From the NCBI RefSeq assembly GCF_053078305.1, contig NZ_CP166879.1: DNA of 64,000 bases. One strand, given 5' to 3'. Position 1 is the stretch's first letter. Every line of letters begins with the position of its first letter. Position numbers and translations under genes: made by a program. The notes under the pieces are model-generated. The model saw nothing but the letters and a program-made list of their open reading frames with translations, ran no database searches and had not been told where the DNA came from. Positions 21,456 through 24,735 of this stretch are shown one piece after another.

Positions 21456-21725
21456 TCACATTTTATCTAACATTAAAAAACATTTACCAAAGGGATAACC
21501 TAGCTGCATACAGCCATTTAGGACATCCCATATATGCTGTGCAACCCCTCCCAATATGACCCCTAGGATTATACCGAGCACGACATTAACTTTTATTTTA
21601 TGCCGTGGTATTTCCTTACCTAACCGCCACGAATCAAAATAAGTAAAACTATAGCCGATTAAATAAATAACCGGGAAGAACACCACGAACCCTAACATGA
21701 TCAGACCAACACTAAAACCAAGCAT
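21456..21725 (-). CDS. Small membrane protein, putative orphan CDI immunity protein (module o3)
   Basis: About 89 aa with two hydrophobic helices; GGAGG 5 nt before the ATG at 21725; lies in the orphan immunity array directly after cdiI-o2. Confidence 0.5.
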   Translation of the reverse strand: MLGFSVGLIMLGFVVFFPVIYLIGYSFTYFDSWRLGKEIPRHKIKVNVVLGIILGVILGGVAQHIWDVLNGCMQLGYPFGKCFLMLDKM

Positions 21726-21755
21726 CTCGACCTCCATAACATGGAAAAATAATAA

Positions 21756-22289
21756 CTAACTAATACATCGACTCAGCGCCAACCTGAGACCAGCGCCGAT
21801 CTCTTCAGGTGAACTATCTGCTGGCAAGATAACATTATCGCTACCGCCACGTCCGGTACCTCCCCATTCTTCCAGCTTCTCATGGCGCGATGGTGAGATT
21901 GTAATTACGCCGTTAGCACAAGAGATATCACAGCTTTTCATACCTTTAAATAAGGCTTTTTTAGTTTTATAACCATACTGCATCATGAGTTTCTTTACCC
22001 AATCAGCATAGCGTTCTGCTGTACACTTAAAGTCATAAAGCTCCATATCGAATGTTGCTTCAGGGTGTATCCATACATCTGTATGGGGAGCGGGTAATAC
22101 AAAGCGACTATGAGCCAACGCATTCTTCACCATAATACCTAACTCATTATCACCAATATCAGGTGTATTCAGTTACTGAACTCCTTGAGGATCACATCGA
22201 TTACTACTGTAACCAGAATAAGTTTCAACACAGATAAAATCTGCATTCGCTTTTACAGAGGCCCATGCCGTTTTTACTATGTTATTCAT
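21756..22289 (-). pseudogene. cdiI: Orphan CDI immunity gene (module o2), interrupted by an in-frame TAA
   Basis: ATG at 22289 (AGGTGA upstream), 1 nt after the toxin stop; 38 codons, TAA at 22173-22175, then the same frame continues for about 138 more codons. Confidence 0.5.
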
Positions 22290-22290
22290 A

Positions 22291-23176
22291 TTATTTCACC
22301 TGAGTTACCTTAACACCCTGACTTTTGCCATACTCAACAGCCCTGTTTATTTCCGTCCATTGAGTTTTCGTCGTATTGGCAGGGACAGCTAATCTCACAT
22401 CTTTACTGGAAATCATTGATGAGTCAATATTAACGCCAGAAAGTGATGCTTTCTCAAATTTCGCTGCCGCATCAATATTTCCTTTAAGCGAATAATAAAC
22501 CTGATTGGGATTAGCCAGTTTTGCCATCGTCTGGGTATCCATTGATTTAGCACTTACAGCAACTCTTGATGCTTCATCATAATAATCAAACGTTTTAAAG
22601 TTTTGCGGTAATCGCGAATTTGCCGGAAGTGTGGTTCCCACATAATCCTCCACGGCATCCCCTGCTTCATATTACCCTGACCCCACTTCAACCCGCTCTA
22701 TGAAGCGCTGACTGTGGCTGTTGCTGTATTGCGACGCATAAAGGAAATAGCTGCAACGCCGATATCCTTTGCCAATAGACCTAATGAAGCCACTGCCACT
22801 TGATTTTCAGGGGCTGACACAAACAGCGCATATTTCATCCATTCCAGACTATTCATGTCTATTTTAGCCAAATCCTGACCATTCCATTGCTGAACGTAAG
22901 CTTTTGCCTCATCACTGGTCATGACATCAGCGCCAATACTTCCTAGCCAACCAGGACGCTCTGTCATATCAATACCGCCTAAGGCAACCTCTTTATCCCA
23001 GCCCATAGCTGTTAAAGGATGATTTTCCAGACGTTCATCAACGATGGCACTATGCTCGTCACTGACTTTTTTCCATTTATCAATAACATTCTGACAGTCC
23101 CCCCCAATTTTCGGCAGTTTGTCAGCTCTTTATCAAATTCGACGGCCTGAGAACTACTCAGATAATTATTCTCAAC
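22291..23176 (-). pseudogene. cdiA: Orphan cdiA-CT toxin module (o2): VENN motif, no start codon, frameshifted
   Basis: Begins NVVENNYLSSSQAVEFDKEL right after the cdiI-o1 stop; frame breaks at a G7 homopolymer (23099-23105) and again before the C-terminal domain at 22653. Confidence 0.6.
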
Positions 23177-23182
23177 AACATT

Positions 23183-23416
23183 TCAGAACCCCTTAACTTT
23201 CATGATATGCAACAAACCAATACCCAAACCTAAGATCCCACCCCCATACACACTCATTTTTAACAGTCTAGAAAACTGAAAAACTTCAAATGATATTGGG
23301 GCATTCAAATAAAAATACATAAATATCTCCAGAAGAAGATAAAAAATCGAACCGACTATAAACAAACCAAATATGCATACAGTCATTAATAAGACAACAA
23401 TAAGGAAGCTCTTCAT
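23183..23416 (-). CDS. cdiI: Orphan CDI immunity protein (module o1), small membrane protein
   Basis: 77 aa, two hydrophobic helices; ATGA overlap with the preceding toxin ORF; GGAGG 7 nt upstream. Confidence 0.55.
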   Translation of the reverse strand: MKSFLIVVLLMTVCIFGLFIVGSIFYLLLEIFMYFYLNAPISFEVFQFSRLLKMSVYGGGILGLGIGLLHIMKVKGF

Positions 23417-24735
23417 TTCCCAGCCTCCATTGCATCTTTCTTTTTCTGGATAATGGAGCTTCCAAACTCAGATGATAAACTACCACCCGCATTACCCACA
23501 GCACCAGGGATCTTACTCGGTACCATTTCTTTAGATAGACCTAACTGCCCTTTAACTTCAGTATATTTTAGTAGAGTCGGATCGAATTTAGGATTCCAGC
23601 CATCGGTTATCCATTTAGCGATTGTATTTGCAGCAGGCTTGACCACATAATTGCCAACCCCATATCCAAACCCGGCCCCCGCTCCATTTGTAATCGCCCC
23701 AGTAAAAGGATCATCTCCGTTTATAGCGTTGGTTAATGCTCCACCTGCCGCATTCCAGGCTATTGTCCCTTTCCAGCCCTGCCCCATGGTTATCACATTT
23801 ATCCAGCCTGCTGCCACTGAGTTGACCCGGTTTATTTCACCACTATCTGCATACTGCATCCCGGCATTTGTCCCGGCACCAAGTAACCACATAGCTTGGG
23901 CACTCCCCGGTAACAGGGCTACGCTGCCTGTTGCTAATGCGGCTGCATAAGCTTTATTTTCAGCCTGTCCCCGCCTTACAGGCTTCACCGGAAGGATTAT
24001 CACTACAGGAGAGAACATCAGCGCCATGCTCTCTGGCTTTTTCCGTCTGGAGCCATTCACTGCCACCCAGCAGATTATTCTCAACAGCATTCTTCCCGCT
24101 TTGTGCTCCCACTGCTGCTGATGCGGTGCTGTTTCCGGTAAGACCTCCGGCCAGCCCTGCTGACACGGTTGCCAGCGTACTTATCGTCTGCTTCTGCTCT
24201 TCACTGAGGTCAGACAGCTTCACGCCAGGATACAGCATTCCGGCAATTGCTCTGGCTGCCAGTTCTCCTGTTGCGGCGCCTGCTGCACCGGCAGCAACAT
24301 TATTACCCTGCATTGCCGCTACTGCACCGCCCAGAATGGCGTGAGCAATGGCGTTTACTGCCGGATCTTTTTCTGTTGATTTCAGCAGGTGCGCCAGTTC
24401 CGGAGCCGAAGCTCCGGCCAGAGCACCCGCTAAATTACCCCCCGCCAGCCCCTGAAGCGCGGCCCGGATACCCCGCTGAATTTCACTGCCGGTACCATAC
24501 TTCGCCATTTCATCCCTGTAAGCCTGCGTGTCACGCAGTTTTGCCAGATATGCCTGCCGCTGCTCTTCCGTCGCATCCTCCGGAACAGGCCCATATTTAT
24601 CCTGCGCAGCCTTCAACGCATTCAGTTCCCCCTGCGTCCGCGCAATATCAGCCACCTGACTGCCTATGTCACTGATAAGCCCCACTGTCTACAGACGCTG
24701 CTGCTCTTTTTCCTTGTCAAAGATGGAAAAGCAAA
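23413..24735 (-). pseudogene. cdiA: Orphan cdiA-CT module (o1): retained pretoxin homology block, VENN, glycine-rich toxin domain; internal stop and frameshift
   Basis: Region up to GKNAVENN is homologous to the resident CdiA pretoxin region; in-frame TAG near the start; CT continues in a second frame (23960-24090 overlap) into a Gly-rich domain. Confidence 0.6.

Follow-up and report, generated by a model that had tools for sequence, protein, structure and literature searches.

Decay of an orphan cdiA-CT/cdiI array behind an intact cdiBAI operon of Escherichia coli

Does the DNA behind a contact-dependent growth inhibition (CDI) operon, cdiBAI, still hold toxin cassettes that can be moved onto cdiA, or has it become a relic? 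The question is raised by a stretch of 64,000 nucleotides (nt) from contig NZ_CP166879.1 (hereafter the window), in which a first-pass annotation had recognized, downstream of cdiBAI, an array of three orphan CDI toxin/immunity modules in mid-decay. A decaying array of orphan modules, each formed by a cdiA C-terminal toxin sequence (cdiA-CT) and a cdiI immunity gene, is indeed present. We consider it very likely that positions 24724-21188 on the minus strand, behind a cdiBAI operon of E. coli that is itself intact, form a degenerate orphan array of this kind, composed of two broken modules, a solitary membrane open reading frame (ORF) and a symE remnant, that redeployment of the array on the resident cdiA is impossible, and that it provides at most immunity. 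The two modules are called orphan 1 (o1) and orphan 2 (o2) below, and the features on which the argument rests are the following:

36310-34538, minus strand: cdiB
34525-25031, minus strand: resident cdiA, 3164 codons (9.5 kb), reading frame unbroken
25034-24771, minus strand: resident cdiI, 87 codons (87 residues)
24761-24739, minus strand: terminator-like hairpin (9 bp, -11.2 kcal/mol) followed by U7, directly 3' of resident cdiI
24724-24074, minus strand: o1 pretoxin block, IFDKEKEQQRL...GKNAVENN, without start codon
24085-23413, minus strand: o1 toxin from VENN to stop, glycine-rich, CT-M15-type group 6 CDI ionophore, frameshifted
23416-23183, minus strand: o1 cdiI, 77 residues, two hydrophobic helices, intact, GGAGG 7 nt before the ATG
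23176-22291, minus strand: o2 toxin from VENN to stop, EC869-o11/YPIII-type DNase, without start codon
22289-21756, minus strand: o2 cdiI, 177 codons, pseudogene, ATG 1 nt past the toxin stop and AGGTG upstream
21725-21456, minus strand: solitary ORF with two transmembrane (TM) helices, 89 residues, intact, GGAGG 5 nt before the ATG

The window is from E. coli. The cdiB, cdiA and cdiI genes and then the orphan array all lie on the same strand, and numerous complete genomes match the cdiB/cdiA region at 97-98% identity. The hairpin 3' of resident cdiI resembles an intrinsic terminator and is kept in IGC_RcoliRes_1.1. The sequence had been said to restart behind this terminator, at 24735, with a pretoxin homolog; it does so from about 24724, where the o1 pretoxin frame is open right from the terminator on and has neither an ATG nor a Shine-Dalgarno sequence. 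A homolog of the resident CT carries the RefSeq label “DUF4258 domain-containing protein”. The motif preceding the resident CT is AENN (NSAENN; 25754-25765, minus strand), not the canonical VENN.

Loci of this class have been described since 2011, when Poole et al. (PLoS Genet, PMC3150448) reported orphan cdiA-CT/cdiI modules downstream of cdiBAI in E. coli EC93 (o1) and EC869 (o1-o11), and every component of the window array except the family of the 89-residue ORF is close to published CDI modules. In EC93 the orphan cdiI is expressed and protective and the orphan toxin is not made, and VENN-bounded conservation in EC869 and strain 254 underlies the recombination model of that study (PMC3150448). 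The window array resembles these orphans in that: (i) it follows cdiI, with toxin fragments that start at or upstream of VENN and lack translation signals; (ii) each toxin fragment is followed by a cdiI gene with its own Shine-Dalgarno sequence and ATG (GGAGG in o1, AGGTG in o2); (iii) conservation between strains is bounded by VENN-coding sequences; and (iv) mobile-element debris lies at the array end. The CT of each module has a homolog at the C-terminal end of a full-length CdiA, that of M15 and other strains for o1 and the 4G6U/4ZQU chains for o2. Unlike the orphans of EC93 and EC869, whose toxins are functional, both toxins and one of the two cdiI genes are inactivated here, and the o1 pretoxin is without usable homology to the resident cdiA. 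The first-pass statement that the immunity genes have good Shine-Dalgarno sequences holds for the signals themselves, including the GGAGG before the 89-residue ORF, but one of the genes so equipped, the o2 cdiI, is interrupted.

Where did the o1 pretoxin come from? Its proposed similarity to cdiA pretoxin regions is readily found, as the translated block matches the Pfam family PT-VENN (E=1.7e-19) and ends in VENN at 24085-24074 (minus strand). Compared with the equivalent stretch of the resident CdiA it shows 50% amino-acid and roughly 72% (71-73%) nucleotide identity, and no stretch of exact identity exceeds 9 nt, whereas it is 94.7% identical in nucleotide sequence to the cdiA 3' end of the mouse strains M19, M11, M6 and M9 (M19/M15-type). 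The o1 pretoxin thus derives from a different cdiA lineage, in keeping with the earlier proposal that the divergent block had come from another allele, and the same two values rule out a local duplication of the pretoxin block.

The o1 VENN is followed, in the order described before, by a glycine-rich toxin and a small membrane immunity gene. Together, the o1 CT and the adjoining 77-codon ORF have 97.6% nucleotide identity with the terminal part of the M15 cdiA gene, and the published M15 primers match the window at VENNLLG, at ...EAGK stop and at MK..LLIV. CT-M15 is a group 6 ionophore that enters target cells via DtpA/DtpB and depolarizes them, cdiI-M15 protects against it in an experimentally validated pair, and ionophore CdiIs are two-helix hairpins of 72-100 residues (Halvorsen et al. 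2024, PLoS Genet, PMC11630599). The o1 module has the elements of such a pair, namely an entry domain, an ionophore domain with a glycine zipper (GxxxGxxxG, as GAGAGFGYG) and a small two-helix CdiI, here a hydrophobic hairpin of 77 residues like that of M15. The toxin carries a +1 frameshift caused by one surplus base at about 23975; after removal of this base, 215 of 223 residues (96.4%) are the same as in CT-M15. The o1 cdiI start overlaps the toxin stop (ATGA), and its product is identical to CdiI-M15 at 75 of 77 residues (97.4%), the two substitutions, R3S and L4F, being N-terminal. Judged by its sequence, o1 CdiI is predicted to be functional, and by analogy with CT-M15 the o1 toxin would be of the membrane-depolarizing, DtpA/DtpB-dependent kind. 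The M15 toxin, however, ends a full-length cdiA, while the o1 toxin of the window is a detached, frameshifted fragment. A sequence search of the Protein Data Bank (PDB) with the ionophore CT gave no match.

Two side observations concern the o1 module. About 140 E. coli genomes, including O157:H7, match the o1 CT over the first ~585 nt only, on the entry-domain side, and then diverge; sharing of the entry side only agrees with the entry and pore domains of ionophores being modular, as has been reported. Furthermore, homologs of o1 cdiI (23416-23183) are left unannotated by PGAP in M19, IGC_RcoliRes_1.1 and other RefSeq genomes inspected (loci L001, 6022-6252, and L003, 3022-3252), so that the only gene of the array that is probably functional escapes automated annotation.

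Module o2 begins with the second VENN without start codon that had been noted before. It lies at 23176-23165, 6 nt past the o1 cdiI stop (23185-23183) and in the same frame, which reads N-V-V-E-N-N-Y-L-S-S-S-Q. MSI001 holds the module as a single open 297-codon frame from VENN to stop, and the toxin protein in this open form matches PDB chain 4G6U_A over its full length (E=5.8e-145), with its C-terminal domain matching 4ZQU_A. Residues 1-175 of o2 CdiI, which is cytoplasmic, match 4ZQU_B (E=2.2e-87). The o2 toxin and immunity protein thus both have full-length homology to solved complexes of the EC869-o11 type. We take 4G6U and 4ZQU to be the DNase/immunity complexes EC869 CdiA-CTo11/CdiIo11 and Yersinia pseudotuberculosis YPIII CdiA-CT/CdiI, respectively; the EC869 o11 and YPIII CdiA-CT/CdiI complexes were reportedly the subject of work by Morse et al. 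in 2012 and 2015. Although o2 aligns with these complexes (the toxin at full length, CdiI over 175 residues), its toxin and its cdiI carry inactivating lesions. A second immunity gene is accordingly real, but the 125-residue ORF with which it had been equated (22133-21756, minus strand) is only its tail, the remainder downstream of an internal ATG, since codon 39 of o2 cdiI is TAA (22175-22173) where MSI001 has TTA.

Each lesion of the array was checked base by base against intact copies. The o1 pretoxin has an in-frame TAG at 24691-24689, where intact copies have CAG, and a 9-nt in-frame deletion near 24464. Relative to MSI001, the o2 toxin has 1-nt deletions at about 23107 and 22652, a GAG to TAG change at about 22700 and, at about 22310, a deletion of 6 nt that keeps the frame. 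By module, this amounts to one nonsense change and one frameshift in the o1 toxin, two frameshifts and one nonsense change in the o2 toxin, and one nonsense change in the o2 cdiI, which shows that both orphan toxins and the o2 cdiI are pseudogenes; the stops and frameshifts first seen in the toxin parts are thereby established at the level of single bases. As the toxin fragments have no start codon, they could never have been translated on their own, even before the lesions arose.

Could this decay be an artefact of sequencing or assembly that conceals intact modules? Three indels, at about 23975, 23107 and 22652, fall within or next to runs of G and are possible sequencing errors, which speaks against decay. 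The nonsense changes (CAG to TAG at 24691, GAG to TAG at 22700, TTA to TAA at 22175, and TGG to TGA in symE) are, however, not homopolymer errors, and neither the in-frame deletions of 9 and 6 nt nor an 86-nt deletion in symE fits with an artefact; the adjoining 9.5-kb cdiA, moreover, reads without interruption. Given these four nonsense substitutions, the three deletions and the flawless cdiA, we regard an artefact as most improbable.

How was the array assembled? The junction that runs from the 87-residue cdiI through the terminator to the pretoxin block is present in 33 of 5426 complete E. coli genomes, and the o1/o2 junction in none of the 5426. The resident DUF4258 CT/cdiI pair recurs as an orphan behind another cdiA in IGC_RcoliRes_1.1 and 88-3493, with the same downstream junction. 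In a three-way comparison, the window equals M15/IGC upstream of a shared 17-nt sequence, TTGTTGTTGAGAATAAT, and matches MSI001 downstream of it, apart from a single mismatch within the 50 nt displayed; this switch from M15/IGC-like to MSI001-like sequence places the o1/o2 crossover inside VENN-coding sequence. The mosaic junctions show that the array arose when arrays of different strains recombined with one another, both at the pretoxin homology and at VENN-coding sequence.

The orphan copy of the resident pair in IGC_RcoliRes_1.1 and 88-3493 keeps only about 50 pretoxin codons (locus L001, 7875-8748, compared with 24771-25908 of the window), and in IGC_RcoliRes_1.1 its DUF4258 CT has a frameshift just upstream of AENN, where the motif reads AAENN. 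An origin of the resident cdiA by fusion of a cdiA of the IGC_RcoliRes type with the first of its orphans was considered and ruled out, there being no megablast-level similarity between the two cdiA genes across 27489-25908.

The first-pass annotation had seen in this layout a set of silent cassettes that can be recombined onto cdiA. If the array were such a working reservoir, homologous recombination onto the resident cdiA would switch the toxin/immunity type of the strain, and several observations are favorable to the idea: the layout agrees with the model of Poole et al. (PMC3150448), crossovers at VENN did occur in the history of the array, and homologs of the o1 CT end full-length cdiA genes in M15, M19, M11, M6, M9, RM8082 and OkiPb strains. 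The o1 toxin frame is, in addition, open from VENN to stop in the 7 other orphan copies that were examined, which also indicates that its decay is specific to this genome. A recombination-competent cassette, however, combines a near-identical tract shared with the expressed gene and an intact coding sequence, and we find neither here. The exact matches between the o1 pretoxin and the resident gene, at about 72% nucleotide identity, do not exceed 9 nt; the AENN-coding sequence of the resident gene, GCTGAAAACAAT, has mismatches to the corresponding sequence of the orphans, GTTGAGAATAAT, in 4 of its 12 nt; both toxins are pseudogenes in this genome; and because the o2 cdiI is broken, even a repaired o2 toxin would be suicidal when fused to cdiA. 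On account of the short exact runs, the mismatched motif-coding sequence, the broken toxins and the broken o2 cdiI, redeployment onto the resident cdiA is not expected, and we consider a working reservoir extremely unlikely. Nothing else resembling the array was found within the window.

With the array taken to be a degenerate relic, what could it still do? As a source of toxins for the resident cdiA it would no longer be usable. At most, o1 CdiI may protect the cell against CT-M15-type ionophores delivered by neighbors, as its sequence suggests, the 89-residue protein may add whatever role it has, and the remainder of the array would be a decaying relic. Protection by the intact o1 cdiI is plausible as a residual function by analogy with the orphan cdiI of EC93 (PMC3150448). 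Several points weigh against it: (i) a terminator sits ahead of the array, which bears on o1 cdiI expression; (ii) promoter-like matches number 7, as compared with 7.8 expected from shuffled sequence, and at this chance level the scan neither supports nor excludes internal promoters; (iii) about 9 lesions are spread over about 3.1 kb, and at this density the probability of finding none in the 504 nt of the two small genes is, by our estimate, P~0.23, so that their intactness taken alone is not significant; and (iv) the ratios of synonymous to non-synonymous changes are 3:2 for o1 cdiI, 4:4 for the 89-residue ORF and 4:8 for o2 cdiI, too few changes for dN/dS.

Is the 89-residue ORF a third module? 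It had been counted as one, as a third immunity-like membrane gene, and we find two modules and a solitary membrane ORF instead: the gap between the o2 cdiI stop and this ORF is just 30 nt long, with no toxin fragment in it. (The ORF-finder version of this gene has 93 residues and starts at 21737.) The ORF is present in 10 of the 5426 complete genomes, always within a block consisting of o2 cdiI, the ORF and a convergent symE. Genomic contexts of the family were viewed in the window (21456-21725, minus strand) and in loci L006, L007, L009, L012 and L024-L027, and neither the 10 E. coli genomes nor the Pantoea or Serratia loci contain a VENN or toxin fragment before the ORF. Homologs with 60-79% identity all have exactly 89 residues, and 36 columns of their alignment are invariant, among them those of two cysteines near the C-terminal end. 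The homologs of Serratia marcescens and of a metagenome contig follow a complete Imm8-type (PF15586) cdiI that itself stands directly after cdiA, and those of Pantoea come after what is left of an Imm8 gene or after an intergenic gap. When 1.84 billion representative sequences were searched with a profile, 69 family members (representative clusters) of about 85-95 residues were obtained, and the distant relatives whose contexts were viewed are solitary genes: one is located in a Mu-like prophage, flanked by terminase genes but on the other strand, and others lie beside lambda-like tail genes or on an integrase/ParM-bearing element. Pfam, PHROGs and PADLOC contain no family for the ORF or for its distant relatives, nor does NCBIfam for the ORF.

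These data bear on two readings of the ORF. It may be a genuine third orphan cdiI of the ionophore type, whose toxin fragment was deleted from what was once an array of three modules. Its size and TM hairpin suit the 72-100-residue ionophore CdiIs (PMC11630599), it is intact with a strong Shine-Dalgarno sequence and strictly conserved columns, and outside the CDI loci of E. coli, Pantoea and Serratia no close homologs (60-97% identity) were found. The family, however, never adjoins a toxin or VENN fragment, following instead a complete Imm8-type cdiI or an Imm8 remnant or gap; its distant relatives, which lie in prophages or on a mobile element, are solitary; and the ORF has no similarity to o1 CdiI detectable by BLASTP or HHalign and is absent from the sequences and accessions in the supplements of the ionophore study (PMC11630599). 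A deleted third module is thus possible but somewhat doubtful, and since neither the ORF nor its relatives have a toxin fragment beside them and similarity to o1 CdiI is lacking, we do not count it as a module. Alternatively, the ORF may belong to an undescribed family of solitary small membrane proteins, with two TM helices, a conserved W-x-x-G...P loop and a C-terminal cysteine pair, carried as cargo in CDI orphan arrays, in prophage moron positions and on the integrase/ParM element. Such proteins might provide stand-alone protection without a linked toxin, either as immunity to membrane-acting toxins or by exclusion of phage or CDI entry; we offer this reading tentatively and judge it rather unlikely as formulated. 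This membrane-protein family is the only loose end of some novelty at the locus.

The left end of the array and its flank contain the following features:

21410-21432, no strand assigned: GC-rich hairpin between the convergent 89-residue ORF and symE, candidate bidirectional terminator
21188-21394, plus strand: symE-family remnant, converging on the 89-residue ORF and part of the same imported block, whose left end it marks
21075-20281, minus strand: phage tail-fibre or tail-fibre-assembly-like gene (phrog_11571, E=1.8e-141)
18093-19420, minus strand: split IS4-family transposase remnant; in FEX669 the homologous stretch carries the label IS4 family transposase

Relative to its annotated counterpart in MSI001, the symE remnant has lost its 5' end at the 21188 breakpoint and carries a TGG to TGA change near 21335 and the 86-nt internal deletion. 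It scores 25.4 bits against an NCBIfam cut-off of 132, which is not the score of an intact SymE type I toxin, and this sub-threshold match is all that NCBIfam returned, with nothing for any CT or cdiI or for the 89-residue ORF. An Rfam search of 20000-26000 at E<=0.1 detected no RNA family and no SymR-like match. The hairpin at 21410-21432 is likely to act as a bidirectional terminator. Beyond 21188, the tail-fibre gene and the IS4 remnant directly border the left end of the array, whereas the arrays of MSI001, LI60C3 and M19 run on past symE with more orphans, which indicates that the window array is truncated. A SymE-family gene inside CDI orphan arrays, convergent on the 89-residue ORF, is also seen in mouse E. 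coli strains (L002, 5717-6046; L004, 9756-10052).

Upstream of cdiB, positions 37280-40151 (plus strand) hold a methyltransferase-led gene cluster, in which the next gene is annotated elsewhere as a beta-ketoacyl synthase chain-length factor and an acyltransferase-like ORF and a small acyl carrier protein-like ORF lie further on; it looks like a polyketide or aryl-polyene-type lipid cluster.

For CDI biology, the locus brings nothing categorically new, and its value is that of a natural example of the fate of orphan cassettes: module boundaries recombine at VENN, and a CT/cdiI pair that is resident in one strain can occur as an orphan in another. When the homology with the expressed cdiA has gone, the toxin parts, and even an immunity gene, decay. 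For annotation, the array contributes pseudogenes of two toxins and of one cdiI, a cdiI that is probably functional but lacks a PGAP annotation, and one uncharacterized family of small membrane proteins.

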